From: Candidatus Bathyarchaeota archaeon
Lineage (GTDB): Archaea; Thermoproteota; Bathyarchaeia; Bathyarchaeales; Bathycorpusculaceae
Direction of reading: 5' to 3'
DNA length: 64,000 bases
NCBI GenBank assembly: GCA_963717465.1
Contig: OY970340.1
Coordinates: forward strand, 1,600,001-1,664,000
A model generated the notes under the pieces. It did no database searches and had not been told where the DNA came from. It saw only the letters and a list, made by a program, of their open reading frames with translations. The position numbers and the translations under genes were made by a program. This document shows positions 33,900 through 64,000 of this stretch, piece by piece; position 1 is the first letter of the stretch; each line of letters begins with the position of its first letter.

Positions 33900-33915
33900 A
33901 TAAGGAGGTAAAAAA

Positions 33916-34635: not shown

Positions 34636-34675
34636 AAAATATAACGAATAAGAGTGACTTCAGACGGAGGGAAAC

Positions 34676-35566
34676 ATTATTAAAAGTTTAACTAATCCCA
34701 ACCCTCCGCCAATCCGTGAAGTCGCAAACAAATCTATTTCTACACTTAAAGTTCAACAAAACAAGCTTGAACAAGCTAGTTTTCGCCTTAAAGAACGTGA
34801 TAGAGTACTTTTTGAGACCTGCATGGGCGCATTAAAAAGAAATAATAAAGAAAGAGCCGCAATGTGCGCAACTGAACTGTCTGAAGTACGTCGCTTAGTA
34901 AAGTTTCTTTCTAACGTTCAGTTAGCAATTGAACGTGTGGTTTTGCGACTTGAGACTATTAGAGAACTAAGCGATATAGTTGTTGACTTAAAACCTGCCC
35001 TGCGGCTGCTTCAAAATGTTTCATCAGAATTATTTCAAGTATTACCTGACGTCAGCAACGAGCTAAGCAATGTAAACGACGCCATAAGCGAAACCCTTCA
35101 CGTAACAAAACTTCAAGCTGACGAAAACATTATCCCCGTTGGAAGAAAGACAGAAGCCGGTGCTGAAATACTAAAAGAAGTTTCATCTTTCATGGAGAAA
35201 AAGATGGCTGAAACTCTTCCTGAACCCCCGCGTGCTTCCCCTGCTAAAGCGAAATCGCCAATCAAGGAGCTCGTTGCGCTTTCCGCTTCCTCTTCTGATT
35301 TACATGGAAACAAAACTGAAGAGAAAGAGGATTCCTCTCAAACAGTTATTTCTTACAAAAAATCTGAAATTAAAGAAATTACTATGAAAGTCAAGCAGCC
35401 ATCATTAGAAGATGTGCTTCTTGAGTACGTAAGAAAGAGCAAAGGTCAAATTGATATGTCACGTTGCTCGAATGAGCTTAATACTTCTAACAAAGAAATT
35501 GAGCGTGCCCTAGAAAATCTGGGAACACAGGGCAAAATAAAAATCGAGTTAAAATCGCCTGAATAG
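34676..35566 (+). CDS. cdvB: ESCRT-III CdvB with C-terminal winged-helix domain (probable ATT start)
   Basis: Snf7 core (ELSEVRR...LAIERVVLRLETI), LPEPP, C-terminal wH (LLEYVRKSKGQIDMSRCSNEL). The frame is open 49 codons upstream of ATG 34823 to an ATT placed 5 nt after GGAGG. Confidence 0.85.
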   Translation: MIKSLTNPNPPPIREVANKSISTLKVQQNKLEQASFRLKERDRVLFETCMGALKRNNKERAAMCATELSEVRRLVKFLSNVQLAIERVVLRLETIRELSDIVVDLKPALRLLQNVSSELFQVLPDVSNELSNVNDAISETLHVTKLQADENIIPVGRKTEAGAEILKEVSSFMEKKMAETLPEPPRASPAKAKSPIKELVALSASSSDLHGNKTEEKEDSSQTVISYKKSEIKEITMKVKQPSLEDVLLEYVRKSKGQIDMSRCSNELNTSNKEIERALENLGTQGKIKIELKSPE

Positions 35567-35576
35567 GAGAAATAAA

Positions 35577-36743
35577 ATGAGTGCCTCACATGAACTAGAA
35601 AAATCTGCAACGGCATACGCTTTAGATGCCGTTAAAATGGATAAACAAGGCCAAAAAGGCAGAGCAATAACCCTTTATCAGAAAGCAATTGAGAATCTCT
35701 TGCAGCTTGTTCAATTATATCCTGAATATGGTCTGAACAAAGTTTATGTTCAGAGAGCAATTGCTTACCAAGAACGAATTAAAGCCCTTCAAGGAGCAGT
35801 TTCATCAAATGAAATGCGGGAAGAAGCAATCGACGCTGAAGGTGTACCCAAAACGCCTGAGATCAATGGAAAAGCAGCCGAGGAATTAATCGTTACTGAA
35901 AAGCCGATGGTTAACTGGGCTGAAGTTGTCGGTTTAGATCCTGCTAAAAAGGCAGTTAAAGAAGCAATAGTTTATCCTGTGCAAAGACCTGATCTGTTTC
36001 CGCTTGGTTGGCCGCGAGGAATTTTACTTTTTGGTCCTCCTGGCTGCGGTAAAACTTTGCTGGCTGCTGCTGTGGCTACAGAGATTAACGCGAACTTTTA
36101 CTCGATTGATGCAGCTTCGGTTATGTCTAAGTGGCTTGGTGAAGCGGAGCAGAATGTCGCAAAACTTTTCGGGTCAGCCCGTAAATCCTCAAATGAAGGT
36201 AAGGCTGCTATTGTGTTTGTTGATGAGTTGGATTCACTTATGGGTCAGCATGCAAATGAAGTAGGCGGAGAAATTCGTGTTCGCAACCAGTTCCTTAAGG
36301 AAATGGATGGCATAGTGGATAAAGGAAAGAACTTGCATGTCTATGTTATTGGCGCGACGAATAAGCCTTGGGATTTAGATTGGGCGTTTATTAGGCGTTT
36401 TCAAAAGAGAATTCTTGTTCCTCTTCCAGATAACTCAACAAGACTAAGTATGTTAAAGCTTTATTCAAGTAATCTTAAGATTGATGCAGATGTTGATTTG
36501 TGTGAGTTAGCAAGGCTTTCCGAGGGCTTTTCGGGAAGTGATATTCGTGATGTTTGTCAGTCAGCTCAGTTGTCACTTATCGGCGAGTTCTTTGAGTCTG
36601 GAAAAGCTCAGGATAAGGAGGCAAAGCCGCGGTTGTTAACGATGGCCGATTTCCGCCAAATCCTAGAAGAGCGCAAGCCAAGTGTCTCGTTAGATATGCT
36701 ATCGCAGTATAATAGATGGTTTGAGGCTTTCAAAGCCTTATAA
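35577..36743 (+). CDS. cdvC: Vps4-like AAA+ ATPase CdvC
   Basis: N-terminal MIT domain; GPPGCGKT, SKWLGE, FVDELD, ATNKPWDLD and RRFQKRI motifs. Confidence 0.93.
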   Translation: MSASHELEKSATAYALDAVKMDKQGQKGRAITLYQKAIENLLQLVQLYPEYGLNKVYVQRAIAYQERIKALQGAVSSNEMREEAIDAEGVPKTPEINGKAAEELIVTEKPMVNWAEVVGLDPAKKAVKEAIVYPVQRPDLFPLGWPRGILLFGPPGCGKTLLAAAVATEINANFYSIDAASVMSKWLGEAEQNVAKLFGSARKSSNEGKAAIVFVDELDSLMGQHANEVGGEIRVRNQFLKEMDGIVDKGKNLHVYVIGATNKPWDLDWAFIRRFQKRILVPLPDNSTRLSMLKLYSSNLKIDADVDLCELARLSEGFSGSDIRDVCQSAQLSLIGEFFESGKAQDKEAKPRLLTMADFRQILEERKPSVSLDMLSQYNRWFEAFKAL

Positions 36744-47469: not shown

Positions 47470-47484
47470 TTTTCGTTACATCTC

Positions 47485-48372
47485 TTATGCTTTAAGTTTG
47501 TTAACGAGAGTTTGAACTTGGGTTTTATTTTTGTCCAGGCCGATCTCTGCTGGGGTCATACCGAGCGCTAAACCCAAGAGTTGCGTTAGAAAGACTACTG
47601 GTAACTCGTATTTAGTTTTCAACTTTTGATTTATTTCAACTTGTCCGTTATCAAATTGGAGATGACAGAAGGCACATGGTGTGACTACACAATCTGCTCC
47701 AGCACTAAGCATGTTGTCAATCTTTGACCTGGTGAAATCAAGGGCAACATCAATGGCGTCAGATCTCACTCCGCCGCCTGCGCCGCAGCATTGCATTTTA
47801 TCCTTGTAATCAACGCTTTCTGCACCCAATGTTCTAACAAAATCATCGATTATAGTTGGGTTTTCAGCTGAACCGTGTTTTCTCACCGCGCTTGGCTTTA
47901 AAAAGTGGCAACCATAGTGGACTGCAACTTTGATGTTGCTAAGTGGGACTTTTACCTTTTCTTTAATAGCTGAGTAGCCAACATCTTCGTTTAAAACTTC
48001 AATTATGTGTTTTACTTTTGTTGTTCCTTTATATTCTCTATTGACTTCTTTGAAGATATCATTCACCTGATGCTTCAATTCGTCATTTTCCATTAAGAGG
48101 CAGTTAGTCTCCTGAAGTGACCCGTAGCAGCCATTACAGGTAACTGCTATATCCTTATTCATTTGCTCGGCGATAGTAAGGTTTCTTGCACTAATCACAG
48201 CCCATGTTAACATGTCAAAAGAGCCGAAGACTCCTGGAGCAGGGCAGCATGAAGCCCCCTTCATATCCAGTAATTCTATTCCAAAAACTCCAAGTGTTTT
48301 TTTGGTTGCTAATTCAATTCCAGGGTAACGGTTGGGCGCAATACATCCAAGAAAGTAAGCATACTGTTTCAT
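47485..48372 (-). CDS. hdrB: Heterodisulfide reductase subunit B
   Basis: YFLGCIAPNRYPGIE, SCCPAPG, CNGCYGSL, HYGCH, CCGAGGG and CAFCHLQFD motifs. Confidence 0.96.
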   Translation of the reverse strand: MKQYAYFLGCIAPNRYPGIELATKKTLGVFGIELLDMKGASCCPAPGVFGSFDMLTWAVISARNLTIAEQMNKDIAVTCNGCYGSLQETNCLLMENDELKHQVNDIFKEVNREYKGTTKVKHIIEVLNEDVGYSAIKEKVKVPLSNIKVAVHYGCHFLKPSAVRKHGSAENPTIIDDFVRTLGAESVDYKDKMQCCGAGGGVRSDAIDVALDFTRSKIDNMLSAGADCVVTPCAFCHLQFDNGQVEINQKLKTKYELPVVFLTQLLGLALGMTPAEIGLDKNKTQVQTLVNKLKA

Positions 48373-48950
48373 TTTTTAACCTCTCCCTTAACTGCTTTTT
48401 CTGCAACGAGAACCTTAAATCCTGTTTTTTCAAGTAACTTGTTTATTTCTTTAAGTCCCTCAGGATCACTGAGAGTAGTTGGCGGAACCTCTGATAGTCC
48501 CATGTTTTTTCTAACTGCTTTCATTTCATCATTAATAGGCACGGCATGCCCACTCGCCATGAAAGCTTTGGCGATTTTTCTATGTGATTCTTTTATGTTG
48601 CCATTTTTCACGGCCATGTTTCTGAGAATTCTAACTATGTCAGTAGTGTGAATGCCTCGGGGGCACCTTTCTTGACAGGTATAACAAGTAGTGCATTTCC
48701 ACAAATCATCACTCGAAAGAACTTTATCTTTTAATCCTGTCGAAGTCTCTTCAAAAATTTTTCTAATTCGCCATGAAGTTCGTCTTCCAGAGGGGCAGCC
48801 TCCGACACACCTTCCGCATTGAAGGCATTGTCTAAGTTTTTCTATTTCTTCCTTGTTATAGAATTTTGAACCAGCATCTATAACTTCATTGCGAAAATTA
48901 AATGATGCGTCTTGAATAACTTCTTTCTTTGGAGCCATCCTTATCCCCAT
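48369..48950 (-). CDS. hdrC: Heterodisulfide reductase subunit C
   Basis: CLQCGRCVGGCPS, LWKCTTCYTCQERCPR and GHAVPI motifs. Confidence 0.95.
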   Translation of the reverse strand: MGIRMAPKKEVIQDASFNFRNEVIDAGSKFYNKEEIEKLRQCLQCGRCVGGCPSGRRTSWRIRKIFEETSTGLKDKVLSSDDLWKCTTCYTCQERCPRGIHTTDIVRILRNMAVKNGNIKESHRKIAKAFMASGHAVPINDEMKAVRKNMGLSEVPPTTLSDPEGLKEINKLLEKTGFKVLVAEKAVKGEVKK

Positions 48951-49196
48951 GCTCTTTTCTTAGCCAACTCTACGCTGCTTAGTTTTGAATAAACATTGAC
49001 CCGTGAATTTAAACATTTTTACCTCACCGAATTCATTTAAAATGTTAAAGTCTGCTCAGTTTTATAATGAAAGTTAACTGTTGCATGTACCTTGAGGTGC
49101 ATTATAATGGCAAGCCGATAAGAAATTAACATGACAAGACATAAATAAGCTCAATCGCTTTTTAGTTTCTTAAAAAATAGGAGTGCTACAACTATA

Positions 49197-50222
49197 ATGG
49201 ATTTAAAAGAAAGGTTTCTTGCTTCAACGAAGCGTAAACCAGTTGATAGAGTTCCTTGTGCAAGTCCCCTTCAAACGGCAACAGTAGATTTAATGAATAA
49301 ATGTGGCGCGAGTTGGCCTGAAGCTTTTAGAAATGCAGAGAAAATGGCTACTCTTTCCGCTGCAGCTTACGAAATAGGCGGAATTGAAAGTGTTCGAGTG
49401 CCTTTTGACTTATCCGTCGAGGCAGAAACGTTGGGCTGCAAAATTAAACCAGGCTTGGTCAACGTCCAGCCGCAAACATTAGAAGGCATAATTAATAGTC
49501 CCGATGATGTTGGCAAAGTGAAGGTTCCTGATCCGAAAACAGCTGAACCTATGGCAACAGTCTTAAAAGCAGTAAAGATTCTCAAAGGAAAGTATCCCGA
49601 CAAAGTACCTATTATCGGTGCAGCTTTGGGTCCCATGACGCTAGCCGGACACGTTAATGGTATAGAAAAATTTTTGGTGGCCTTGAGAAAGCAACAGGAT
49701 TTTGCCAGATCAATTCTTGATTTTGCAACGCAAGTTTCAACAACTTATTCGCTTGCGCTAGTTGAAGCTGGCGCTGACGTCATAAGTTTAATAGATCCCT
49801 CAGCAACTGGGGAAATATTAGGGCCAAGGTTCGAAAAAGAGTTCGCTACTCCATACACCAAGAAAGTGGTTGAGCAAATACACAAAGCAGGAGTACCTGT
49901 AATCTTACATATCTGCGGCAAATCTACCATTATTTGGGATTCTATGGTTGAGACTGGATCAGACATGCTCAGCATCAGTGAGCAAGTTGACATGGCTGAA
50001 GCAAAACAAAAAATAGGCAGCAAAGTTGCTCTTGCTGGCAACATTAATCCGATTCAGACTTTGCAGTTTGGGACACCGCAAGACGTGGAGAAAGCAGTCA
50101 AAGAATGCATAGAAAAGGGCGTAGATAACCTTTGCCCAGGTTGCGGATTCACACCGAATACATCACTAGAAAACATGAAGAAAATGACAGATGCGTGCAG
50201 AGCTGTAGGAGCCAAACGATAA
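49197..50222 (+). CDS. mtaA: Methylcobamide:CoM methyltransferase (MtaA/MtbA-like, UroD fold)
   Basis: QTATVDLM...WPEA, RVPFDLSVEAE, Zn-binding LHICG and PGCG motifs. Confidence 0.8.
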   Translation: MDLKERFLASTKRKPVDRVPCASPLQTATVDLMNKCGASWPEAFRNAEKMATLSAAAYEIGGIESVRVPFDLSVEAETLGCKIKPGLVNVQPQTLEGIINSPDDVGKVKVPDPKTAEPMATVLKAVKILKGKYPDKVPIIGAALGPMTLAGHVNGIEKFLVALRKQQDFARSILDFATQVSTTYSLALVEAGADVISLIDPSATGEILGPRFEKEFATPYTKKVVEQIHKAGVPVILHICGKSTIIWDSMVETGSDMLSISEQVDMAEAKQKIGSKVALAGNINPIQTLQFGTPQDVEKAVKECIEKGVDNLCPGCGFTPNTSLENMKKMTDACRAVGAKR

Positions 50223-50680
50223 ATTCAAAGGCATGCAGCTTAAACAGCCCTCTCTTTTATTTTAGCGGTATGTAACTGCTCAGAAATGTTTATAATAAAT
50301 TTTCGCAAATTTCGTAATTTTCTAACCCTTTCTCAACATTTTTGCCAGCATGTAGTGTGTATTATTCGTCAATAAACGAAATACATACCTTTCCATGCAC
50401 GTTTAGTGTTTTGGCACTCTATAAGGTAGGTCCGTGAGCGTCGCGCAGCCTTTCGGCAGTGCGCGCTAAATTGCGTCTTGTTAAGTTCAATAGTTGCTCA
50501 AAGAGTTTATTATAACCTTGAAGGATGTATTCAATGACTTCTCCTTTATCATTAAAGACAAGCTCACAGACTTGAACGTCTACATTAAGCATTCTAAAAG
50601 TTTAAGACAATTATCAAAACTATTTTGGAAGATATCTTGAACGATTTGTTTTTCTTCCATAAATCCCAATAATTAATTAT

Positions 50681-50722
50681 TTCTGATTAGGTACTTTATT
50701 AATTCTGATTAGGTATTTTATT
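50681..50722 (+). repeat. Two-copy tandem repeat (22-bp period)
   Basis: TTCTGATTAGGTACTTTATT-aa-TTCTGATTAGGTATTTTATT. Confidence 0.8.
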
Positions 50723-51165
50723 TTTTAGGTTTAATCTAATTAACATGACAAAACCACAAGCAGAGATGGCTTGAATTGACCTTGTTTTAGTCCAAGCGAA
50801 TGCAAAAACTGGCAGGAAGAAGAGGTGAAGCATTCCACTTTGGATTAAATGTCAATTCAACCAGCCTCATATTTTTGGATTGGGTTTAGTGCGCACTCCA
50901 AATCAATTGTCTTTTGCGTTATGAAAATATCGTAAGCTGCTTTTACGCATTGATTGGCTGCTTCAAAAATATTTTGATTTGAACTATGATTAAATGGTTC
51001 TGTAGGTATTAATCCCTAAATATGTCTTGGGAGAAATGAGTCTTGAAATCGACATTATTGGATTTTGACCTTTTTGGTTTAAGTCGGTAGGCCTAGCGCT
51101 GCTACAATATATTTAATTAATGTTTACTTAAAGGCTTAAATATCAGTAAAATTTCCAAAGCATTT

Positions 51166-52215
51166 ATGACAACTCCATATGATCGATTGATTAATGTTTT
51201 GAGTGGTAAAAAAGCTGAAGTTGATCGACTTCCCGTTATAAACCCTGTCTCCACTTACACATATGATTCTATGAAAGCATATGACGCCTATTGGCCAGCT
51301 GCCCATAGAGATCCTGAAAAAATGGCAAAGCTAGCCGCAGGGCTCCATAGACTTGCAGGCTTAGGTAACGTGACAGTTCCATTTGAATTGACCTTCGAGG
51401 CTGAGATTCTCGGTGCCCCAGTGCAGTTTTTCGAAGACAAGATAAAATGGCCCACTGTTAAGGGTTTTATTGCTCATGAAGTTTCTGACCTTAAATTTCC
51501 CAAGGATATATCAACGGCTGGAAGAATACCAGTTGTTACTAATGCTATTAAAATATTAAAAAGGGAATTCGAAGGCAAAGTCCCAATAATTGCGTACATA
51601 AATTGTCCATTCACCAGCATCAGTAGCTACTTAGTTGAACCAGTCGAATTCCTGAAATCTCTAAGACGTGAACCCGAGAAGGTTCGCGAATTCTACAAAG
51701 CATCCTACCCATTTTATGGTGAAATTGCAAACGCGTTTAAGGAAGCCGGCGCCGACATAATCACATATAGGGAAGAAGGTGTCTCACTTGACAACATCTC
51801 AATCAAGGATTTCGACGAATATGTTAAGCCATATCTCACTAAACTGATTGGTCTCACAAAGTCGCCGAAAATTCTCCACACCTGCGGTTTATGCATAAGC
51901 CGTGAAAAGGAAATTATTGGAAGGATGATAGAATGCGGTGCCGATGCAATTTCCATTGAGGAAAGGACACCAATGAAAGCAGCAAGAGAATTCGCCGACA
52001 AGGCTAAACCAGGTTATCCTATATGCGGAAATGTTGCTCCTTTTTCGGTTATACATAATGGTCCTATTGAAAGAATCAGATTAGCCGTTAAAAAAGCAAT
52101 TGATGAAGGAGTGGATATAGTATCACCTGGCTGCGACTTTTACTTGGAGACCCCGACTGAGCATGTGAAGGCTTTCGTCAATGCCGCTATTGAGTTTGGT
52201 ACACAAACAAGGTGA
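51166..52215 (+). CDS. MtaA/CmuA-family methyltransferase, paralog 2
   Basis: YWPAAH.DP.KMAKL, VPFELTFEAE, LHTCG and PGCDF motifs. Confidence 0.85.
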   Translation: MTTPYDRLINVLSGKKAEVDRLPVINPVSTYTYDSMKAYDAYWPAAHRDPEKMAKLAAGLHRLAGLGNVTVPFELTFEAEILGAPVQFFEDKIKWPTVKGFIAHEVSDLKFPKDISTAGRIPVVTNAIKILKREFEGKVPIIAYINCPFTSISSYLVEPVEFLKSLRREPEKVREFYKASYPFYGEIANAFKEAGADIITYREEGVSLDNISIKDFDEYVKPYLTKLIGLTKSPKILHTCGLCISREKEIIGRMIECGADAISIEERTPMKAAREFADKAKPGYPICGNVAPFSVIHNGPIERIRLAVKKAIDEGVDIVSPGCDFYLETPTEHVKAFVNAAIEFGTQTR

Positions 52216-52628
52216 GGAAGTCTGTCAACTTCGTTAGGGAAATCTAAAGGTAAATTTTCGAGGAAACGTTAAGGATTATAATCGGCAAACCTCTTCTTTC
52301 GGCACTTGCCAATAAGCTTGGCATGTCGAAAAGTCTTTATTTTTTCTTTACATTTTTTATATGTGTACATTACTTAGAAAAGCATGTGCTCTGTAACTTA
52401 CCTTTCAACTATTATCCTTATTGTGAAAGCGTTCGCCATGAAGAAAGAGTTGATGAATTAATCGAAAAATAAACAGTCACTTTAAGAATTTTTTACAACA
52501 TTAAGAGATAAAGGTAATACTTAACGAATTTGACAGAAATCGGCAGGTTATGGGCAAATAAAGAAGAAGTTTACAAAAAAGTAAAAATATAGGTGTTTTT
52601 TGCTAAAAAACAACAGGTGAACAAAGAC

Positions 52629-53589
52629 ATGTTTAAATTTAAATCTCAACAAAAAATTTTCAAGATAGGAAATGTGAGTATAGGTGGACAGCCGGGAGAA
52701 CTCCCGAAGGTGCTGTTCGGAACCATTTTTTATGGCAAACATAAAATCGTAGAGGACCAGAAAAAAGGCATTTTCGACAGGAAAAAGGCAGAGGAACTGA
52801 TAAATAAACAAGAAGAGCTTTCTGATCTTACTGGTAACCCTTGCGGGTTAGATGTTGTATGCATCTCGCTTGAGTCAGCTTGTAAGTTCATCGATTTTGT
52901 TGCAGAGACAACTGATTGTCCGATTTCAGCAGATATTTGGACGCCCGAGATTAAAATTAAAGTTCTAAATCATATTGCTGAGGTAGGTCTTTCAGATCGA
53001 ATCATTTACAACAGTGTGATGTCAGTTCCGTTGCCCAGCGAAGATGAACTTAATGCTATTAGAGAGTCAAAGGTTAAGTCAGCTGTAATTCTATGTTACA
53101 ACACAAAGGATCGTACGACCAAAGGTGTTTTGTCTTTGCTCAGGGGCACTGAAGAGCAAAAGGGCTTGCTGGACATAGCTCAGGGAGCAGGAATAGAAAA
53201 GCCATTAGTTGACGCAACCATCTTTACATACATTCCAAGCATAGGCGTTGGAGCTAGAGCATGTTACTTAGTAAAAGATGAATTCGGTCTTCCAGTGGGC
53301 GGTTCACCTGGAAACGCAACTACTGTTTGGAAAGAACCAAAAAAGTGGGGACAAGATATCTTTAAAGCGTGTGAAGCAGCGGCAGAAGTTGTACCTTTAG
53401 CCTTAGGCGCAGATTACCTGTTTTATGGACCAGTTGAGTCGGCCCCTTGGGTATTTCCAGCCTGCGCTGGAGTTGACGCAATGATTGCCAGCAGCAGCTA
53501 AAACTGAATTCGGAATAAAAACCTTGACGAAAGAGCATCCACTGTATAAATTATTCCCCGAAATCGTTAAAAAGTTAGACATTGAATAA
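52629..53589 (+). CDS. mtrH: MtrH-like pterin:corrinoid methyltransferase (frameshift near 53490)
   Basis: MFKFKSQQKIFKIG...IGGQPGELP..L.GTIFY..HKIV.D..KG.FD, GADYLFYGPVE; shifted tail AAKTEFGIKTLTKEHPLYKLF. Confidence 0.85.
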
Positions 53590-53609
53590 GAATAAAGAGA
53601 TGATGCAAT

Positions 53610-54650
53610 ATGGTTGAATTGACTTCTTATGACAGAGTCATGGCTGTTTTAAACGGCAAGAAAAGTTCTGTTGATAGGCTTCCTTGCATAAACTCTGTTA
53701 GTGTAAGCACGATTGATTTCATGAAGTCTTATGATGCTTATTGGCCAGCCGCACACAAAGACCCTGTGAAAATGGCCAAACTTGGCTCGGCGGCTCACAG
53801 ATTATGTGGTCTTGATAACGTGACAGTACCATTTTGTATGACAGTTGAAGCGGAGGCACTTGGAGCGGTGATTAATTTTCACGAAGACACAATAAAGTGG
53901 CCCTCAATTAAAGAATTTCACGTGAACGAGCCTTCAGATCTTAAATTTCCCAATGACGTATCAACAGCTGGAAGAGTTCCAGTCGTCATTGAAGCAATCA
54001 AAATATTGAAAAAAGAATTTGAAGGCAAAGTTCCCGTAAATGCTTACATAACACCACCATTCACGAGCATCAGCAGTTACCTAGTGGACAGCGTTACTTT
54101 CTTGAAGTGGCTGAGAGTTTCGCCAGAAAAGGTTCATCAATTCGTAAAAAGCGCTAACGATTTTTACGCAAAAATAGCAAAATTATACGAAGAAGCTGGG
54201 GCTGACATAATTACTCTTCATGAGATGGGTGCTTCTACAGATAACATATCACCGAGACATTTTGATCAATTCGTTAAGCCTTATATCGTTGACTTGATTA
54301 AGCCTTTGAAGGCAAAAACGATTTTGAACATTTGCGGAGATGCTAATATGATTGTTGACAAAATGGTTGGAACTGGTGCAAGTGCCATATCAGTAGATGA
54401 GAGAACAAAAATTAGCGGAGTTAGAAATGCAGTGGATAAGATTAAGCCAGGTTATCCTGTCGCCGGTAATTGCCCATCCTACACAGTGATACACTTAGGT
54501 ACTGTCGAAAAAATAAGGGACTATGTCAAGCAAAACATCCAAGATGGCGTTGATATTGTGGCTCCCGGTTGTGATTTTTGGCTAGAGACTTCTGTTGATC
54601 ATGTGAAGGCTTTTATTGATGCAGCCAAAGAATTTGGGAAACTACAATGA
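53610..54650 (+). CDS. MtaA/CmuA-family methyltransferase, paralog 3
   Basis: Close paralog of 51166; VPFCMTVEAE, LNICG (His replaced by Asn) and PGCDF motifs. Confidence 0.85.
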   Translation: MVELTSYDRVMAVLNGKKSSVDRLPCINSVSVSTIDFMKSYDAYWPAAHKDPVKMAKLGSAAHRLCGLDNVTVPFCMTVEAEALGAVINFHEDTIKWPSIKEFHVNEPSDLKFPNDVSTAGRVPVVIEAIKILKKEFEGKVPVNAYITPPFTSISSYLVDSVTFLKWLRVSPEKVHQFVKSANDFYAKIAKLYEEAGADIITLHEMGASTDNISPRHFDQFVKPYIVDLIKPLKAKTILNICGDANMIVDKMVGTGASAISVDERTKISGVRNAVDKIKPGYPVAGNCPSYTVIHLGTVEKIRDYVKQNIQDGVDIVAPGCDFWLETSVDHVKAFIDAAKEFGKLQ

Positions 54651-54740
54651 TAAAGAGGAATACTTTACAAAAAAGTATTTATTCCTGCAACAAAACTCAC
54701 GAAACTTAAAGAACTAATAATTTAATGGAGAGAAAAAATA

Positions 54741-55427
54741 ATGAGTGAAACTGAAATATTTAAGAAACTTTCTGATGCAGTTGATACTGGAAACGTTGAG
54801 ATGGCTAAAGAGGCTGCTAACGAGGCTATCGCTAAGGGCGTTCCAGCTTTGAAGGCGATTTTGAATGGGCTTGCAGAAGGAATGAGAATTGTTGGCGTAA
54901 AATACGAAGAAAAGGAATATTTCTTGCCTGACATGCTTGCGGCAGCAGATGCAATGTACGCTGGGATAGAACTTTTGACTCCTCATATTCCTGCGGCGGA
55001 TAGAAAATCAAAAGGAAAGATAGTTATGGGTGTTGTAGAAGGCGATGTTCATGACATTGGAAAAAACATTGTAAAAATAATGTTGACGGCTTCTGGATAT
55101 GAAATCGTGGACTTGGGCAAAGATGTGCCAACAGGCGAATTTATTAATAAAGCTAAGAGTGAAGGAGCGCAAGTAATAGCGATGTCAACGCTTATGACGC
55201 CAACGCTCATGTCTATGAAAACAGTAGAAGAAAAACTGAAAGAATCAGGAATGAAAGACACTGTTAAAACTATCATAGGCGGCGGCTCAGTAAGCGAGGA
55301 ATGGAAGAATAAAATAGGTTCAGATGCTTATGGCGCGGATTCTTCAGAAGCTGTCAGCAAAGTTAAGCAGTTGCTAGATAGTATCATGACCGCTGTAGAC
55401 GTAATGAAAAAAGATCAGAAACAATAA
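54741..55427 (+). CDS. Methyltransferase-cognate corrinoid protein (MtaC/MttC-like)
   Basis: Cap domain (GL..GM..VG.KYE..EYFLP); B12 motif GDVHDIGKN, DLGKDVP and IIGG. Confidence 0.93.
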   Translation: MSETEIFKKLSDAVDTGNVEMAKEAANEAIAKGVPALKAILNGLAEGMRIVGVKYEEKEYFLPDMLAAADAMYAGIELLTPHIPAADRKSKGKIVMGVVEGDVHDIGKNIVKIMLTASGYEIVDLGKDVPTGEFINKAKSEGAQVIAMSTLMTPTLMSMKTVEEKLKESGMKDTVKTIIGGGSVSEEWKNKIGSDAYGADSSEAVSKVKQLLDSIMTAVDVMKKDQKQ

Positions 55428-55441
55428 GAAGGTAGACTAGT

Positions 55442-57358
55442 TTGGCTCCTGAAGAAATTGAGATCGTATTTCAGCCCTATGGCAAACGAACAAAGTTTCC
55501 ATCGGGCATCAACCTTTTAGATGCCGCCAAAGGTTTAGGCATAGATTTATCTTCACTATGCTCAGGAAAAGGCACTTGCGGAAAATGCAAAATCAAGATT
55601 CAAAAAGGAGCAGAGGGTTTAAGTCCCCTCACAGAAAAGGAATCAAAGCGCCTATCCCAAGAGGAACTTGACACATCCCACAGATTAGCATGCCAAGCTA
55701 CAATAACAAACTCTGCAATAATCTATGTTCCACTAACAAGCAGAGTGGGAGTTCAGAGACTACAAACTGACGGGCTTGATGTACCAGTAAAACCCAACCC
55801 CTTCGTGAGAAAATACTATTTAGAAATGACTCAACCATCACTTCATGACATGAGGTCTGATGAAGACAGAGTTTTTGATGCATTAAACAAGGAGTACGGT
55901 CTTTCTAACGTAAAATTTGACTTTGACACCGCAAAAACTCTTCCAATAAACCTTCGAAAAGAAGATTGCAAAGCAACCGCTGTTGTCTGGAACGACAAAG
56001 AAATTATTGCTCTCGAACCTGGAAATACCTCCGATAGATGCTTTGGACTTGCCGTGGATATCGGATCTACAAAGCTAGCAGGATTCTTGATGGATCTTAA
56101 AACCGGTCAAGTTGTTGCCGTCGCAGCTAGAATGAACCCCCAAATTCCGCTGGGCGAAGATGTCATGTCAAGGATAACCTATGCTATGATGGGTGAGTGG
56201 AAAGCCATCCAGGAACTCCAAACAGCTGTTGTCTCAGGAATTAACGAAATAACTGAGGAATGCTGCAAAAAGGCAAATGTGAAAATTGAAGAAATATACG
56301 AAACCAACTTCGTCGGTAACACAGCAATGCAACTTTGTTTCCTCGGTTTCTGGTCTAGATATGTAGGCTTCTCACCTTACCCGCCAGTACTTCGAAGAGG
56401 TGTTGATGTACGCGCTGCAAGGTTAGGCTTAAAGGCTCACCCAAATGCGAATACGCACTATCTCCCGGTCATTGGAGGTTTCGTGGGAGCAGATAGTATT
56501 GCATGCATCTTAGCATCAAAACTTCTAGAAGAAGATGAAATCAAAATGATTATCGACGTAGGCACAAACACTGAAATCATGTGCGGAAATAAAGACCTAT
56601 GCATGGCTGACTCTTGTGCATCTGGTCCAGCCTTTGAAGGAATGGAAATAAAATTCGGCATGAGAGCAGCAACAGGAGCTATCGAAAAAATTAGCATTGA
56701 TCCTGATACATTGGACCTTAACTTCAGAACTATTGGAAATGCTCCTGCTGTTGGCATAACTGGATCCGCACTCGTCGACGCTCCAGCTGAGCTTCTGAAG
56801 TCTGGTATAATAAACTTGAGGGGCAACTTTGTTCCAGAAATGATGAAGAGAACTGATAGATTAAGAAAGGGATCTAGCGGCTGGGAATTTGTGATAGCGA
56901 GAAAGAATGAAACAAGCATCGGCACAGATGTCGTTTTAACCTTAGCTGATGTTAGAGCACTCCAGCAGGCAAAAGCTGCAATGCACGTTGGAGCAGACAT
57001 TCTGATGAAAAGGATGAACATTCCAATAGAGAAACTGGATAAACTGGTGATTGCTGGGGCCTTCGGAAACTATATCGACGCCGAAAACGCAAGGACAATC
57101 GGCATGTATCCTGAAGTGCCGCTTGAAAAGATCGCTTTCGTTGGAAACCTTGCTGGCACAGGTTCTAGACTTGCTTTGATTTCAAAAGAAGAAAGAGCGA
57201 AAGCTGAAGAAATAAGCAAAAAGGTAAAGTACTATGAACTTGCAGTGGATCCTGAATTCCAGACAGAATATGCGAAGTCACTGTACTTCCCGCACTCTGA
57301 CCTGGATAAGTATCCAAGCACTAAAGAATTACTGAAGAAGTTAGGTCGCATTCCTTAA
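55442..57358 (+). CDS. ATP-dependent reductive activator of corrinoid proteins (RACo/DUF4445, ASKHA fold)
   Basis: N-terminal 2Fe-2S (CSGKGTCGKC...RLACQ); DIGSTK, NPQ..G.DVMSRI, GFVGAD, DVGTNTE, ASGPAFEG and AGAFG motifs. Confidence 0.92.
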   Translation: MAPEEIEIVFQPYGKRTKFPSGINLLDAAKGLGIDLSSLCSGKGTCGKCKIKIQKGAEGLSPLTEKESKRLSQEELDTSHRLACQATITNSAIIYVPLTSRVGVQRLQTDGLDVPVKPNPFVRKYYLEMTQPSLHDMRSDEDRVFDALNKEYGLSNVKFDFDTAKTLPINLRKEDCKATAVVWNDKEIIALEPGNTSDRCFGLAVDIGSTKLAGFLMDLKTGQVVAVAARMNPQIPLGEDVMSRITYAMMGEWKAIQELQTAVVSGINEITEECCKKANVKIEEIYETNFVGNTAMQLCFLGFWSRYVGFSPYPPVLRRGVDVRAARLGLKAHPNANTHYLPVIGGFVGADSIACILASKLLEEDEIKMIIDVGTNTEIMCGNKDLCMADSCASGPAFEGMEIKFGMRAATGAIEKISIDPDTLDLNFRTIGNAPAVGITGSALVDAPAELLKSGIINLRGNFVPEMMKRTDRLRKGSSGWEFVIARKNETSIGTDVVLTLADVRALQQAKAAMHVGADILMKRMNIPIEKLDKLVIAGAFGNYIDAENARTIGMYPEVPLEKIAFVGNLAGTGSRLALISKEERAKAEEISKKVKYYELAVDPEFQTEYAKSLYFPHSDLDKYPSTKELLKKLGRIP

Positions 57359-57700
57359 CTTCACAATTCCTCAATTTTTTTATTTAAATGCGAATTACTA
57401 GATTATCAGTTGCATCTATTAAGGCACTAACAATGTAATATTGTTTCAAACCATTTTCTGCGGACCGTGCGTAGAACTGATGTTTCCTTGGGTTTTTTGA
57501 TCTGCAGTTTGGCTCGGAACGCTCGCTTTCTGTTTCTTTCATTATTAGGTTAATGAGTGGGAGACCAGGTTTTGCAAAGCAGAAATGTACCTACAGTCAA
57601 ATCAATCAACAAGTCGTTCAAACTTACTCATACTCTTCGTGTGCTGTCCTTAAGAGTGCGATGGCTGCTAGCGCTATAAATTTATTATAATAATTAATTC

Positions 57701-58531
57701 TTATTTTTTTCTTACTTGCTCAAGTTGTTGTATTCTTGTATTCACATCGACAGCTTTGCCCCATAACCCCTCAAAAAATACTCGCAACACTCGAATAAAC
57801 ACTTCGCTATCAGTCCAAAAAGCAACCATATCTTCGCCCATCTTAGATTCCCAAACTAGCATCGCACTTTTATCATCTCCTATTAAAAGTCTATATGTTA
57901 TATTTTCCTCCAAAACTAAACAACGCGATTCTGCATTAATACCTAATTCAATAGTCGTAGCCATAAATCGGTTAACTTTTTCGACTTCTTCACGTTTAAA
58001 ATTGATTAAAGATCTAATTTTCACATTCTTAAAATTGCCTTGTACTATCTGTTCAGAAGATAGTCCCTTAAAATTTGAGACCATCCATAATATCTCTTTC
58101 TTTGCATCAAGAACCACCTGTACGCCTTTTGCAGATATAATTTCTTGCCGTTTAAGAATTAGAAATTTTTCATTATCCGCTATTGGGTAATCAGATGTTA
58201 TTGACTTAAATTGAGCTATGATCTCCTTTTTATCAGCTTCTAAGCAATGAGTTTGTTCTTTCATTGCTTTAATATTCAAGTCTAGAACTTTTTCAATTGG
58301 AACAGCAATATATGCCATTGGGCGGTCTATTGTTGATTCTACGATGCCCTTACTTTGTAAACTCTTTAGAGCACGATATGTATCCCCTTTATGGAGTCTT
58401 AGTCTGTTTATAATTTCCTTAGCATTGGTAGGGACTTGATTTTTTGCGAGGTAAAGGAAAACTTCTTGCTCTTTTTTAGTCAGCCCCAGTTTTGTAAGAA
58501 TCTCTGATAACTGATTGTTGTATCCATTCAT
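57701..58531 (-). CDS. TrmB-family transcriptional regulator
   Basis: LGLTKKEQEVFLYL...YRALKSLQSKGIV...RP..Y.AV N-terminal wHTH; C-terminal effector-domain-like region. Confidence 0.85.
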   Translation of the reverse strand: MNGYNNQLSEILTKLGLTKKEQEVFLYLAKNQVPTNAKEIINRLRLHKGDTYRALKSLQSKGIVESTIDRPMAYIAVPIEKVLDLNIKAMKEQTHCLEADKKEIIAQFKSITSDYPIADNEKFLILKRQEIISAKGVQVVLDAKKEILWMVSNFKGLSSEQIVQGNFKNVKIRSLINFKREEVEKVNRFMATTIELGINAESRCLVLEENITYRLLIGDDKSAMLVWESKMGEDMVAFWTDSEVFIRVLRVFFEGLWGKAVDVNTRIQQLEQVRKK

Positions 58532-58832
58532 CTGTTAATCTTCCATTGATATTTTAGACTGGCTTTGAAAATGAATAAGTACTTCCAAGAAAATAACTTT
58601 CATAGTAATTGATCATAAACCATTAACTAACCTTCACTACCACTAGTCTCAGGGTGTTCGCATTTTCGACTTACCAAATTATATATTTGAATATTTACAT
58701 AAAAGCCTTGTGATGGTGTGATGGTTTAGGGAGGTGTTCTTCATGTACATACTCCAGGTCTCAATACTTGATTCCAACTCCCTAACTAATCTCCAATAAA
58801 ATTGTCAGAAATATGGGGGATCATAAGAATAT

Positions 58833-59099
58833 ATGTCTGGGCGTAGGAGGAATATGGTCTCAAAAGCTGCTTTTGATATTCTTCGCCTTCTTTCATTAAA
58901 TGGACGAACAAGATACACTCAAATTTGCTTTGAATTGGCTTTAAGTAAGACTACTGTAAGCATTTGTCTGAAAAAATTGATTGCCGAAGGCTTGGTTAAA
59001 AGCAGAATTAGCATTGCTGGAATCAAAGTTTACTCTAACACGGCTAAAGGTAACAAAGTCTATGAGCGCAAAAAAACAACTGTAGTAATCTTAAGTTGA
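58833..59099 (+). CDS. Small winged-helix (ArsR/MarR-like) protein
   Basis: ILRLL...YTQI...LSKTTVS..LKKL...GLV...Y..T.KG. Confidence 0.7.
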   Translation: MSGRRRNMVSKAAFDILRLLSLNGRTRYTQICFELALSKTTVSICLKKLIAEGLVKSRISIAGIKVYSNTAKGNKVYERKKTTVVILS

Positions 59100-59106
59100 T
59101 GCTGTT

Positions 59107-59283
59107 ATGACTGAGTTTGTAGCGGGTTTAAGTCGTAATAAAACTAAAACTCAGATTTTCACCAAGTATTGTATGCGCTGCGATAAACCGTTCAGGCTAA
59201 ATGATAAAGTTGTAAGTCGCCCACGGAGAAATCAACTCCAAAGATACTATCATAAAGATTGCTATGAAGAAATGTTTGTTTAA
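59107..59283 (+). CDS. 58-aa CxxC...HxxC zinc-finger protein (absent from the ORF track)
   Basis: MTEFVAGLSRNKTKTQIFTKYCMRCDKPFRLNDKVVSRPRRNQLQRYYHKDCYEEMFV*; paralog of 38120-38359. Confidence 0.7.
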   Translation: MTEFVAGLSRNKTKTQIFTKYCMRCDKPFRLNDKVVSRPRRNQLQRYYHKDCYEEMFV

Positions 59284-59294
59284 GCACGCGCAGT

Positions 59295-59849
59295 CTTTTT
59301 GCGTGTTTAGCGGACCGATACAACTAGGCAATTCTCTGTTAAGATAAGGCTCCAAGTTTCCACGTGTCAATGTTATAAAATCGCTAACACGTAAGCCTAA
59401 CGACTTGCCAACTGTAATGACGTATTGTTTGGTTAAATTACCTATATCAGCCATTTTCTTTAAATCATCCCTAGTAAACCGATAGTCTTCGGTTTTACGA
59501 CTTGCCTTGTTGTTTTTTACTTTCTTGTGTTCGTAAAACAATTGGCATGTAAAAGTATGTGAAAAAACTTCTAGGCGCAATGGTTGCGGTTTTTGCGTAC
59601 TTGAATGAAACCCTTGTTTTTTAGCCATTGTTTGAATGACATTATTTTGCGTTCCCAGCTATGTTCGGTATCGGTTTTGCGGTCTGCAAGTATTTGGTCG
59701 CCTGTCATGCCTGTAAATTCCAAAAAATTTAACCAGTTGTAAAATTAACCATCCCTCGTTGCATTTAAACTATCCAACCATTCTGTCGAAGCTTTATCGG
59801 TTGGGTCGATAGTTCTTGGGGTTTTAGAGCGGTAAGCGCCTTTTCTCAA
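59295..59849 (-). pseudogene. Tyrosine recombinase/integrase N-terminal remnant
   Basis: FLEFTGMTGDQILADR core-binding-like region and YRFTRDDLKKM...GKSLGLRVSDFITL (catalytic Arg box). Has an in-frame stop and a frameshift, and is truncated before HxxR/Tyr. Confidence 0.75.
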
Positions 59850-59985
59850 TTAATCTAACCTTCCTACTTGGTTGATTAACTTTTAGCGCCTTGGATTTAG
59901 GCTATTTGTGGATTTAAGGCGAATATGAGACTTTATTTTAAAGCGCGACTTAAAAAAATATGTTGGAAAATTTCGTTTTTTCAGC

Positions 59986-60012
59986 AAAGTTTATAATAAA
60001 AGTTTTATATAG
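59986..60012 (+). promoter_or_regulatory. Putative BRE/TATA promoter of the mcr operon
   Basis: AAAGTTTATAATAAAAGTTTTATATAG, 35-45 bp upstream of the candidate mcrB starts. Confidence 0.5.
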
Positions 60013-60054: not shown

Positions 60055-61387
60055 ATGAAGTACAAGGACAAAATAGACCTGTATAGTGAGGAAGGAAAAC
60101 TACTTGAGTCTAATGTACCTCTTGAGGCCATTAGTCCAATTTTAAACCCTGCGATTAAGAAAATAATTCATACATTGATGAGATCCGTCGCTGTTAACTT
60201 AGAAGGCATAGAGAAATCTTTGGCAAACGGAACAGTTGGCGGTGAAGGATGTAAGATTCCTGGAAGAGAACTACAACTCGACATTGTGAAAAATGCCAAT
60301 GTCATTGCAGACAAGGTTTTGGAAAAAGTCAGAGCTAAGAAAGGCGATGATGCTGAAGTTCAAATTCTAGCTGGCGGAAAACAACTCCTAGTTAAATCTC
60401 CAACTCTGAGACTCGAAGCTAGTGCTGAATACACAACATCTTTAACTAACATTGCATCAGCTGTGACGCAAACGATCATTGATGTATTCAACGTATCAAT
60501 GTTCGATGCGGATATGGTTAAAGCAGCTGTTTGGGGCAGGTACCCACAATCAATTAATCTAATGGGCAGTAATCTTGCCTCTGTCCTAGGTGTGCCACAG
60601 GCAAACGAGGGCTTAGGTTACGCTCTAAGAAACATATCCGCGGCTTATGTAGCAATGATATGCAAGAAGAACGCTTTAAACACAGCAGCCTTATCCTCAA
60701 TACTTGAACAGATCAGCAGCGTTCGAAATGGGAGACGCAATCGGCGACTTTGAAAGAATGCAACTTCTCGGACTCGCATTCCAAGGATTAAACGCTAACA
60801 ACCTCGTTTACGACCTTGTTAAGGAAAACGGTAAAACCGGAACAGTCGGCACTGTTATTACCAGCCTCGTAAAACGTGCACTCAAAGACAAAGTTATACG
60901 ACCTCTTGAAAAGAACGAATCAGGTTTTGTTACATATACTACTGACGACATGGCGCTCTGGAACGCATACGCAGGAGCTGGATTATTAGCAGCCACAATG
61001 ATAAGCCAAGGCGCAATGAGAGCTATGCAAGGAGTTTCAGCAGTAGTAGTATATTTCAACGACATGCTCGAACACGAAACAGGATTGCCCTCAGTCGAGT
61101 TCGGCAAATCCATGGGTTCAGGAGTTGAATTCTCATTCTTCAGCCACTCAATATACGGCGGTGGAAGCCCAGTCGTATTCCACGGAAACCACATCGTGAC
61201 AAGACACAGCAAAGGATTCTCCATACCTCCAGTCGCAGCAGCAATCGCACTCGACGCAGGAACAGTTTACTATACACCAGAAAAAGTCGCTGGAATAATT
61301 AGCGAAGTTTTCAGCACAATACCAGAACTAAGAGAGCCAATCGCTCATGTAGCAAAAGCTGCTGCAGAAGTGAAGGCCTCTATATAG
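60055..61387 (+). CDS. mcrB: Methyl-coenzyme M reductase beta subunit (+1 frameshift near 60711)
   Basis: [42 protein letters not shown], then [28 protein letters not shown] and [11 protein letters not shown]...[11 protein letters not shown]. Confidence 0.97.
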
Positions 61388-61399
61388 GCGAAAAAATCG

Positions 61400-61847
61400 G
61401 TGCCAAACACACCCCCTCAATTTTCTTTTAAAAATATTTCTGAAAATAACGAAGAAATCGAAATTTTTCCGAATCGTCTATTAAGCCTTGCAACTTTAGA
61501 AAAAATATTAAATAAAATTTCTAAAATTGAAGAAGTTATCTCTGTAACCTTGCAGGGTCAGCGTCTTCCTAAAGAAGAAGCTACTTGCGCTTGTGAAGCT
61601 GAAAACCAAGTTGAGAGCAGAAAGATTCTTGTGCAAAATCAGGAAATTGAAATTCACATCATGACTGGTCGAATAATTCTCGAAGTGCCAAGCCAAGAAA
61701 CTGAAAAAGTTATCAAAAAAATTAAGAAAATATCTGATCAACTGTCTTCCATTTGGCTATAGTATTAGAGTTGGCAAATTCCTTAAAAGAAACGTGTCAC
61801 TAGCTGATTATAAGAGAGAATGGTTTCAAAATATCTCCAAAAAATAA
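61400..61847 (+). CDS. mcrD: McrD (frameshift near 61746)
   Basis: IEIFPNRLL...T.EKILN, GQRLP and GRII motifs; shifted tail LPFGYSIRVGKFLKRNVSLADY. Confidence 0.88.
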
Positions 61848-61875
61848 TTCGTATCTTTAAGATTCTTAGGAGTCG

Positions 61876-62545
61876 ATGATAAAGTTGCCTGGTGGTTCTT
61901 GTCGCAGAATGGAGAAGCCTTGCATAGGCAAAAAGACACAGTTTATCGATTGCCGAGAGGTAATGGGTTTAGGTTTAGGTGGAGGATTAGCGCAACGTGG
62001 AACTCTCGCTGAAGCGTCTCCTGCAGATGTTATTGTTATAGCTATGTCACCTGGAAGAAGGCATATTACTAAACCCGTTTGCGAAATTACCTCTGCATTA
62101 AGAGAAGCTGGTATCAGTGTGAGTGTTTTGATTTTAGATGCTGGTTCAAGTGTACCACCTGATGCACCTTCCTCAAGACAAGGGTACGGACCAATCTTTG
62201 GTTTGTCTCCAGAAGAATTTGCAAAGAATTTCAAAGCATAAACTTGCAATAATTCATTTGGGAAATGTTAGAGCTCACATTGTTTATAAAGCTCGTGCAA
62301 TTTTGAGAATGGTCAATATTCCTGCGGTTGTTATTTGTCAATGTCCAGTTGATTTTGAGGATTTTGCTGAAGTCGGTGTTAGAACGCGCTTTGTAAAACC
62401 GAATGCGACTGAGGAGCAGACTCTTGGTGAGATTGTTGAAATTGTTACTGACGTGGTAAGGGGTCAAACATGCCCTCGAAGTAAACTCGATGAGATAAGT
62501 GGAAAAGTCAAGTCATCACTAAACTTATTAAGGAAAACAAAATAA
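61876..62545 (+). CDS. mcrC: McrC (frameshift near 62224)
   Basis: [22 protein letters not shown] and [16 protein letters not shown], then [25 protein letters not shown] and VVRGQTCP. Confidence 0.93.
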
Positions 62546-62596
62546 TAGTTGAAAAGAAACCATACAATAATTGAGACAAAACGGAGTGTATAGCAT

Positions 62597-63379
62597 TTGG
62601 AAAAATCAGATTATAAGCCTCAATATACCCCTGGCGTCTCCGATGTAGCTAAGAACAGAAGAAACTACATGGACCCAAAGCACAAATTGGAGAAGCTTCG
62701 CTCAATTTCTGACGAATCTCTGATAAGGTTGCTTGGGCATCGCGAGCCTGGAGAAGCCTATAAATCAGTTCACCCACCCCTTGAAGAAATGGGCGAACCT
62801 AAATGCACGATAAGGAAACTTGTTGAACCCACACCTGGAGCCAAAGCTGGTGACAGAATCACATTCATACAATTCACCGATTCTGTGTACTTCTCGCCTT
62901 TGGCACCCTACAGCAGGTGCTGGATGTACATGTCAAGATACAGAGGTGTAGACCCTGGCGCTCTATCAGGAAGATGCCCCCTTGAAATGAGAGAAAGAGA
63001 TTTAGAAGCAGTTTCAAAGGAGCTAATTGAAACAGAAGTTTTCGACCCAGCAAGAACCGCAGTTAGAGGCGCAACAGTACACGGCCACTCTTTGAGACTG
63101 GACGAGAACGGAATGATGTTTGACTTATTAAGACGCTCTGTTTACGACAAGAAGAAGCAAGAAATCACATATGTTAAAGATCAGTTGGGAGTACCGTTAG
63201 ACACGCCAATTGCACTTGGAAAACCGTTACCAGAAGAAGAATTAAGGAAAAGAACAACAATCTTCAGGGCAGACGGAACATCCATACGAAAAGATCCAGA
63301 GCTACTAAAATATATTCAAAGAATTCACACACTAAGAACAATCGCTGGTCATAACCCGGAAAAAGCCAAAGGACTATAA
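62597..63379 (+). CDS. mcrG: Methyl-coenzyme M reductase gamma subunit
   Basis: NRR..MDP..KLEKLR, LLGHR.PGE.YKSVHPPLEE, QFTDS, YRGVDPG.LSGR, RERDLE and RGATVHGHSLRLDENG.MFD motifs. Confidence 0.98.
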   Translation: MEKSDYKPQYTPGVSDVAKNRRNYMDPKHKLEKLRSISDESLIRLLGHREPGEAYKSVHPPLEEMGEPKCTIRKLVEPTPGAKAGDRITFIQFTDSVYFSPLAPYSRCWMYMSRYRGVDPGALSGRCPLEMRERDLEAVSKELIETEVFDPARTAVRGATVHGHSLRLDENGMMFDLLRRSVYDKKKQEITYVKDQLGVPLDTPIALGKPLPEEELRKRTTIFRADGTSIRKDPELLKYIQRIHTLRTIAGHNPEKAKGL

Positions 63380-63405
63380 AAAGAGGTTAAAATGAGGTAA
63401 TAATT

Positions 63406-64000
63406 ATGGTTAAGAAAGAAAAAATGTTTTTAGAAGAACTTGAGAAGAAATTCAAGGAAGATCCTACTAAAAAGACTACTACCTACTACCATTTTGGTGG
63501 CTGGAAGCAGTCAAAGAGAAAGCAAGAATTCTACAGAGCTAGCCAAAAGATCGAGAAAGAGAGAGGCATACCGATGTACTCTCCGGATACTTCACTTAGG
63601 TGGTGTACCTGTAGGTCAAAGACTTCTTATGCCCTATAAGATCTCTGGGACAGACGTTTATTGTGAAGGAGACGACTTACATTTCATCAACAACGCAGCC
63701 ATGCAGCAAATGTGGGACGACATAAGAAGGACAGTAATCGTAGGCTTAGATGCCCCGCACAAAGTATTAGAAAGCAGATTAGGCAAAGAAGTAACACCAG
63801 AAACAATAAGCGAATACATGGAAATACTCAACCACACAATGCCTGGAGCAGCAGTAGTTCAAGAACACATGGTTGAAACACACCCCGCACTAGTGTCAGA
63901 TTGCTATGTAAAACTATTCACAGGCAACGATGAGCTTGCAGATGCCATAGACAAAAGATTCGTAATTAACATAAACAAATTATTCCCCAAAGAAAATGCT
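63406..64000 (+). CDS. mcrA: Methyl-coenzyme M reductase alpha subunit (5' part; +1 frameshift near 63589; runs off the window)
   Basis: [12 protein letters not shown]...RGIPMY.PD, then my translation [52 protein letters not shown]...[11 protein letters not shown]...[37 protein letters not shown]. Confidence 0.97.

Follow-up and report, generated by a model that had tools for sequence, protein, structure and literature searches.

The window analysed here, a 64,000-nt stretch of a Candidatus Bathyarchaeota chromosome (contig positions 1,600,001–1,664,000), carries a five-gene mcrBDCGA operon that encodes MCR (methyl-coenzyme M reductase). We consider it likely that this is a canonical group II MCR operon, intact in the living cell, whose McrA forms a deep clade of its own apart from the published Bathyarchaeia MCR, and which serves methyl-dependent methanogenesis with a lightly modified enzyme. 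Coordinates are window positions unless given in Mb or as G000:C1, G000 being the genome under study. A preliminary description, made from the letters alone, had reported the order B-D-C-G-A. NCBIfam profiles confirm it, placing all five genes on the plus strand where they had been reported (McrB TIGR03257, McrD TIGR03260, McrC TIGR03264, McrG TIGR03259, McrA TIGR03256; E-values 4e-17 to 1e-205). The Pfam family MCR_C matches Mmp7, not McrC. The operon reads as follows:

60055–61387, plus strand: mcrB; start at either 60046 or 60055; a surplus base at ~60713 that a ~95% identical contig lacks; 12-letter tyrosine motif kept
61400–61847, plus strand: mcrD; one extra base at ~61744, absent from 3 contigs from 2 runs
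61876–62545, plus strand: mcrC; a run of A at ~62226 is one base too long; TIGR03264 matches both halves; 222 aa by read-through
62597–63379, plus strand: mcrG; intact, 260 aa; its 90% cluster holds three further members
63406–64000, plus strand: 5ʹ part of mcrA; the gene runs on to window-equivalent 65078 and has surplus bases at ~63588 and ~64748, the first absent from a ~96% identical contig; group II, with C452M

The genes and residues support a canonical methane-type (group II) MCR and predict methane formation. The three subunit genes mcrA, mcrB and mcrG are present at full length, mcrA and mcrB by single-base read-through. In the numbering of Methanothermobacter marburgensis McrA (P0077), the protein keeps Q147, R225, K256, H257, R270, R271, F330, Y333, F396, Q400, F443, Y444, G445, D450, N481 and V482, residues whose roles we presume from the list in the preliminary description and from general knowledge. 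The McrA motifs cited there (30 protein letters, and VVQEHM) lie in an open frame, and the claim that large insertions are lacking holds for the complete protein, which aligns with P0001, P0002 and P0005 without a single gap column. McrG keeps LSGR, as McrB keeps its tyrosine motif. Of the eight McrA residues that had been singled out, seven are kept; the eighth, Cys452, is Met, as it is in the relatives P0001 and P0121 and in Ca. Korarchaeum (P0008). S-methylation of Cys452 is a variable modification and does not define MCR (PMC7058361).

Alkyl-coenzyme M reductase (Acr) is known from what is probably the same order, and there are two relatives with Acr-like genes: G603, of the same family, and G691, of the same order. 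That the enzyme in the window is itself an Acr is nevertheless exceedingly improbable. F330, Y333, F396, Q400, F443, Y444 and G445 are all kept, whereas most are changed in six Acr controls (Y333 kept in 0/6; F330, F396, Q400 and F443 each in 1/6). Identity to methane MCRs is 65–73%; that of the relative P0001 to the Acr controls is 37–47%. In a tree that includes Acr, with 24 of 68 rows omitted (near-duplicates and three long Acr rows), McrA falls outside the Acr clade. Placement in group II (the TACK group) apart from group I is supported at 100/100 for McrA, 100/99 for McrB and 92/92 for McrG; all Acr rows and partial sequences were omitted from the group II McrA tree. On the full 556-aa McrA, neither an Acr-type loss of aromatic residues nor a position among Acr was found. 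We dismiss an Acr on the kept aromatic pocket and the tree position, and the “methane-specific enzyme” of the preliminary description stands.

Four of the five mcr genes as deposited are not single reading frames, which the preliminary description missed; only mcrG is whole. The breaks are the five single-base insertions listed above, the last of them beyond the window. Dropping one base per break yields stop-free, full-length frames of 444 (B), 148 (D), 222 (C) and 556 (A) aa. These insertions are probably assembly errors, and the operon probably intact in the cell, because the same type of insertion breaks essential genes across the genome and close relatives are intact. Among 133 orthologs (from 263 open reading frames in 400 kb of the congener G003), 21 are broken in G000, a rate that is a lower bound, and 25 of the 29 events are +1. 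Broken genes include those for the single-copy isoleucyl- and valyl-tRNA synthetases, and also Rad50, UvrA and TrpB. In peat-metagenome contigs ~95% identical to the operon, the extra base is absent at 3/5 sites, among the indels listed (33 further entries). Two relatives, P0001 on a contig of 46 kb and P0121 on one of 196 kb, have intact 556-aa McrAs with 90–91% identity.

An alternative explanation is that the operon is truly decaying in this strain, the frameshifts being real mutations that followed the loss of methanogenesis. The break density points that way: 5 breaks in the 5.0 kb of mcr, against 1.1 expected (Poisson P 0.005), is ~5 times the genome-wide estimate, and no such break affects the mmp, A2 and cfb genes nearby. 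YcaO and Mmp10 were not found, and mcrA is lacking in 119 congeners. However, all 5 breaks are +1, like 25/29 elsewhere, and clusters of breaks also occur at other sites (4 within 2 kb at 1.555–1.557 Mb; CdhA is also split). There are zero nonsense codons and zero lost catalytic residues, the McrA end branch is not long (0.041), and 5 of 6 listed mcrB differences to a relative fall at the third codon position. We judge decay improbable; even if it were true of this strain, the lineage retains intact copies.

A single contig of 3.05 Mb makes up the genome, which scores 88% for completeness and 1% for contamination; no end overlap was found. SecY, encoded 58 kb upstream of mcr, falls inside the genus clade at 100/98; of its seven matches with a named source, 5 are labelled Bathyarchaeia and 2 bacterial. 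McrA occurs in 1/120 genus genomes and 2/332 family genomes, the second family match being the Acr-like fragment of G603. Mmp3 occurs in 1/332 family genomes and CfbD in 1/120 genus genomes. A draw of 401 genomes from the order gave one other genome with McrG, the Acr-type G691, and a draw of 401 from the class gave two others with canonical McrA.

Since Mmp3 is unique to G000 among the 332 family genomes, the assembly is error-rich, and the relatives' 196-kb and 46-kb contigs have no known host, the methanogenesis DNA could have been joined into a Bathyarchaeia contig from another archaeon. We give such a chimera little credence. The methanogenesis genes stand at three separate sites (hem-cfbAEDCB at 1.567–1.577 Mb, hdr-mtaA-mcr-mmp-A2-com at 1.645–1.687 Mb and mmp5-mmp15 at 2.615 Mb) with host genes (rad50, secY, cdv) between them. 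Between 1.53 and 1.74 Mb, every 10-kb segment has a tetranucleotide distance within the 17th to 75th percentiles of 305 such segments, the G+C content at third codon positions is ordinary, and contamination is 1%. Furthermore, sequencing run X1 covers 29/30 bins, with one contig bridging mtaA and mcrB; from runs X2 and X3 the stretch is almost wholly missing. No RNA dataset holding the stretch was listed.

The McrAs of G000, P0001 and P0121 form their own clade (100/100) at the poorly resolved base of group II. In the other Bathyarchaeia, McrA is sister to that of Nezhaarchaeia, which is also the published position of the McrA from the B25 metagenome-assembled genome (MAG; PMC12700198, PMC10321748). 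Approximately unbiased (AU) tests reject a single clade with these Nezhaarchaeia-sister Bathyarchaeia MCRs (McrA p 6e-38, McrB 0.002, McrG 0.005). Whatever the origin of the G000 enzyme, either it or the other Bathyarchaeia MCR has moved. For McrA, sisterhood with Nitrososphaeria (p 0.21) or with Korarchaeia/Methanoglobus (p 0.36; joining support 62/86) is not rejected; the McrB tree, with one Nitrososphaeria row, excludes Nitrososphaeria sisterhood at 99/97. CfbD is of TACK type and groups weakly with that of the Bathyarchaeon G238 (83/67). Trees of Mmp7, McrC and A2, in which TACK references are sparse, give these genes no placement. The patchy distribution favours an ancient transfer, from a group II donor that has not been sampled, and we lean towards this origin. 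Vertical retention with many losses, allowed by the deep McrA position and CfbD, falls somewhat short of an even chance. A further deep group II McrA clade (P0004, P0123 and P0124; 562 aa, Gln at 452, a six-residue N-terminal insert) is weakly sister to the G000 clade (72/86).

It had been suggested that the retained gene order might show vertical inheritance or transfer. The suggested comparison of operon order across TACK loci does set the locus apart: among 28 loci checked, 25 have both B and G; the order is BGA in 24 of these, B-D points away from G-A in the remaining one, and 0/25 are BDCGA. These loci are not all independent (L028 and G075 count once for trees), and those of Korarchaeia and Methanoglobus were not among the ones fetched. 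In euryarchaeal controls, C lies between B and G in 4/4. On inheritance the comparison is uninformative. BDCGA is reported for Korarchaeia and Methanomixophus (PMC7380581), and it has been put forward as the ancestral arrangement of all Mcr (PMC9982363). Because lineages cannot be united by an ancestral state that they have in common, we dismissed gene order as a marker of inheritance.

What would the enzyme do in this organism? The best reading of its genes is a facultative methyl-dependent methanogen. At the gene level it has the marks of a methyl-reducing one: no Mtr found, methyltransferases, H2-dependent heterodisulfide reduction and an ion-pumping module. MttB- and MtmB-like methyltransferases without an amber codon would load methyl groups onto corrinoid proteins. 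There are ~20 corrinoid loci, 6 MtmB-like and 9–11 MttB-like loci in G000, and none were seen in two congeners. Pyrrolysine-type MtmB or MttB was not found: the MtmB-like matches show no in-frame stop (amber codon). MtaB was not found in G000, and no search for MtbB was made. The substrates may be methoxy-aromatics, quaternary amines or methylsulfides, and not methanol. The six MtmB-like loci (e.g., 79521–80849 and 117065–118387 in G000 coordinates) stand beside corrinoid and MttB-like genes and were not found in four other genomes tested. A repeated unit at L243:9780–11639 and 17832–19691 combines a molybdenum/tungsten bis-pyranopterin guanine dinucleotide enzyme with MttB-like and corrinoid genes.

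From the corrinoid proteins, MtaA-like enzymes, whose genes are present, may hand the methyl group to coenzyme M (CoM). MCR, with F430 made by cfbA-E and activated by McrC, A2 and Mmp proteins, would then release methane. The activation set comprises McrC, A2, Mmp2/3/5/6/7/8/15/17 and a NifB-like protein. Within 23 kb downstream of mcr, mmp3, 6, 5, 15, 17, 7, 8, A2, cysteate synthase and comDE all score above cut-off, and hem and cfbA-E lie 83–93 kb upstream. Weak nitrogenase-like matches to the CfbD profile occur at G000:C1:1350612–1352231, and also in G014. The second mmp5-mmp15 pair (G000:C1:2613853–2616537; L242:8853–11537) is followed by a 334-aa protein without an NCBIfam match and a LipS2-like gene. 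HdrABC with MvhADG is encoded and would restore the thiols with H2 and reduce ferredoxin. A membrane group 4 [NiFe] hydrogenase encoded at 1.197 Mb would reoxidise the ferredoxin and pump ions; both nickel motifs are present, which rules out an Fpo-like complex. Methanosphaera conserves energy by a membrane hydrogenase.

Ordinary CO2-reducing methanogenesis is unlikely in G000 because Mtr (MtrA/C/D/E) was not found. The genome encodes Cdh, Fwd, Ftr, Mch and Mer of the Wood-Ljungdahl pathway, and part of the methyl flux could be oxidised through an MtrH-like entry into this branch. The presence of the oxidative branch also counts in favour of an MCR that runs in reverse, in anaerobic methane oxidation, or serves only as a methyl side sink in a mainly fermentative or acetogenic cell. 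It is well established that direction cannot be read from MCR sequence, and a facultative character has been ascribed to group II genomes (10.1101/2025.10.16.682713). However, without MtrA the uphill methyl transfer from CoM to tetrahydromethanopterin has no known driver, and the many methyl-input systems favour methane formation. We regard reversal or a side sink as improbable, and methane formation from methyl groups as the better account.

The MCR probably lacks thioglycine, methylarginine and S-methylcysteine, to judge from the genes and from residue 452, since YcaO and Mmp10 were not found and C452 is Met. YcaO and Mmp10 were not found in G000 by hidden Markov model or tblastn searches, nor was TfuA found. 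YcaO is present in 17/17 other TACK mcr genomes (15/15 tested, and G075 and G238); the search for Mmp10 was negative in G075 and G238 as well. In G075, YcaO directly follows A2, a place taken in G000 by a DUF2117 gene. Two of the three modifications have been called universally conserved in MCR (PMC7058361). If YcaO is truly missing, the organism would offer a natural way to ask why nearly all other MCRs have thioglycine.

Several points weigh against a functional, lightly modified MCR in this host, in addition to the dense breaks in mcr beside whole accessory genes. The call of assembly error comes from relatives' contigs and the genome-wide pattern, without reads of this organism itself. Among readable contigs, only G000 links mcr to Bathyarchaeia housekeeping genes, and mcrA is reported absent from 28 peat Bathyarchaeia MAGs (PMC11619403). 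Absences in G000 mean “not found” only, because the genome is 88% complete and its closure is not shown; hence the inferred minimal modification depends on absence in one error-rich genome. CfbE, CfbB and CfbC score under curated cut-offs, and Mtd and coenzyme B synthesis are not shown in G000. Lastly, genes do not prove activity (10.1101/2025.10.16.682713).

How does this system compare with known ones? The group II MCRs of Korarchaeia (Ca. Methanodesulfokores) and Ca. Methanoglobus/Methanomixophus are also encoded as BDCGA (PMC7380581). They show the top McrA identity outside the G000 clade (72–73%), and Met452 is shared with P0008. The G000 clade is nonetheless separate from them at 100/100, with a Bathyarchaeia host and relatives in a peat metagenome. 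The published Bathyarchaeia MCR (order B25/Jinwuousiales) is likewise group II with methane-type residues (PMC10321748). Unlike G000, the Nezhaarchaeia-sister Bathyarchaeia (L028, G238 and P0022, matched to the published B25 MCR by tree position and not by the MAG's own sequence) have BGA with C and D elsewhere, MtrA and YcaO. In G238 (L096:3484–3587), the McrA match is interrupted between query residues 134 and 226.

The Acr-bearing Bathyarchaeia BA1 and BA2 (B26-1/Baizomonadales) probably belong to the same order as G000. Their enzymes differ: they are group III, with ~41% McrA identity, an altered active site and mcrA apart from mcrBG. G691 has an mmp3-6-5-15-17-7 cluster ordered like that of G000; its Acr-type locus (L277–L278) has mcrA apart from mcrBG, and mmp3-6-5-15-17-7-mcrD-mcrC-mmp8 in one run. 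Methanosuratincolia (Methanomethylicia) also have a group II MCR, a TACK-type CfbD (58–64%) and no Mtr (10.1101/2025.10.16.682713), but theirs is BGA with YcaO, and they are said to be without the Wood-Ljungdahl methyl branch that G000 has. A triple mutant of M. acetivorans has a viable MCR without thioglycine, methylarginine and S-methylcysteine (PMC7058361), the state predicted for G000. That MCR is engineered and group I, whereas the state of G000 is deduced from genes not found and the change from Cys to Met.

The remaining features lie upstream of the operon:

59981–60012, plus strand: AT-rich TATA-like element upstream of mcrB, a putative promoter
50276–59980, no strand assigned: 9.7-kb block with two MtaA-like genes, an MtrH-like gene, a corrinoid protein, a RamA/AcsV-like activator, TrmB and a helix-turn-helix gene; skipped in one relative's contig, the relatives' copies being on other contigs
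49197–50222, plus strand: MtaA-family methylcobamide:CoM methyltransferase (NF004889 above cut-off), directly adjoining the mcrB promoter in the relative
45073–48959, minus strand: hdrC, hdrB and an hdrA-mvhD fusion, by profile matches

An imperfect copy of the TATA-like element (17/20 bases) lies at 50280–50299, and this imperfect 20-base repeat bounds the 9.7 kb. In the relative's contig the 9.7 kb is absent, and the mtaA side (50275) is joined straight to the mcrB upstream region (59981). This suggests that mtaA-mcrBDCGA is probably the older unit. One open reading frame in the 9.7-kb block (59197–59628) resembled an integrase and has no Pfam match at E 1, and we rejected it as such. No mobile-element boundary was shown, and no tRNA was found in the loci downstream of mcr. 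The segment after mcrA (G000:C1:1665151–1669950; L001:5652–10450) encodes DUF6951, OsmC-like and NifX-like proteins, a radical SAM enzyme resembling BioB, a membrane protein of 300 aa that matches nothing in Pfam, and a protein of 179 aa. The last is weakly similar (19–24%) to a gene that lies upstream of mcrB in loci of the Nezhaarchaeia type. The genes of this segment are possible candidates for MCR maturation or regulation. Elsewhere in the window are a RuBisCO large subunit split by a frameshift (7355–8660) and a CdvABC cell-division cluster (33234–36740) that is conserved in five congeners.

What does the locus add? BDCGA in TACK archaea was known. The new part is the host, together with a second MCR lineage in Bathyarchaeia that has a near-complete kit for methyl-dependent methanogenesis. 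Within Bathyarchaeia, a single MAG was known to carry canonical MCR (PMC10321748, PMC12694404), and a 2025 review calls methane production by Bathyarchaeia unresolved (PMC12694404). We found no report of the G000 McrA clade or its host in the literature searched, whose scope did not extend to subscription papers; the supplements of 10.1101/2025.10.16.682713, with its reference McrA set, could hold one. A bolder proposal, which we hold only tentatively and think unlikely as a whole, is an independent second methanogen lineage in a widespread freshwater and peat genus. It would make methane from lignin-derived methoxy groups or quaternary amines with a natural MCR lacking thioglycine and methylarginine; its deep McrA would be vertical, and the B25 enzyme would come from Nezhaarchaeia.

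Bathyarchaeia, a large group from sediment and peat whose members are not normally methanogens, are among the most abundant archaea of sediments, and the locus adds a separate McrA lineage in another of their orders, on a single long contig that carries mcr with the F430, activation and CoM genes. Relatives of this McrA occur in a peat metagenome, a habitat in which all group II mcrA has been reported as Methanosuratincola-like (10.1101/2025.10.16.682713). The locus gives primer design, enrichment and isotope experiments something definite to aim at, and it calls into question the vertical origin that has been proposed for the B25 enzyme.

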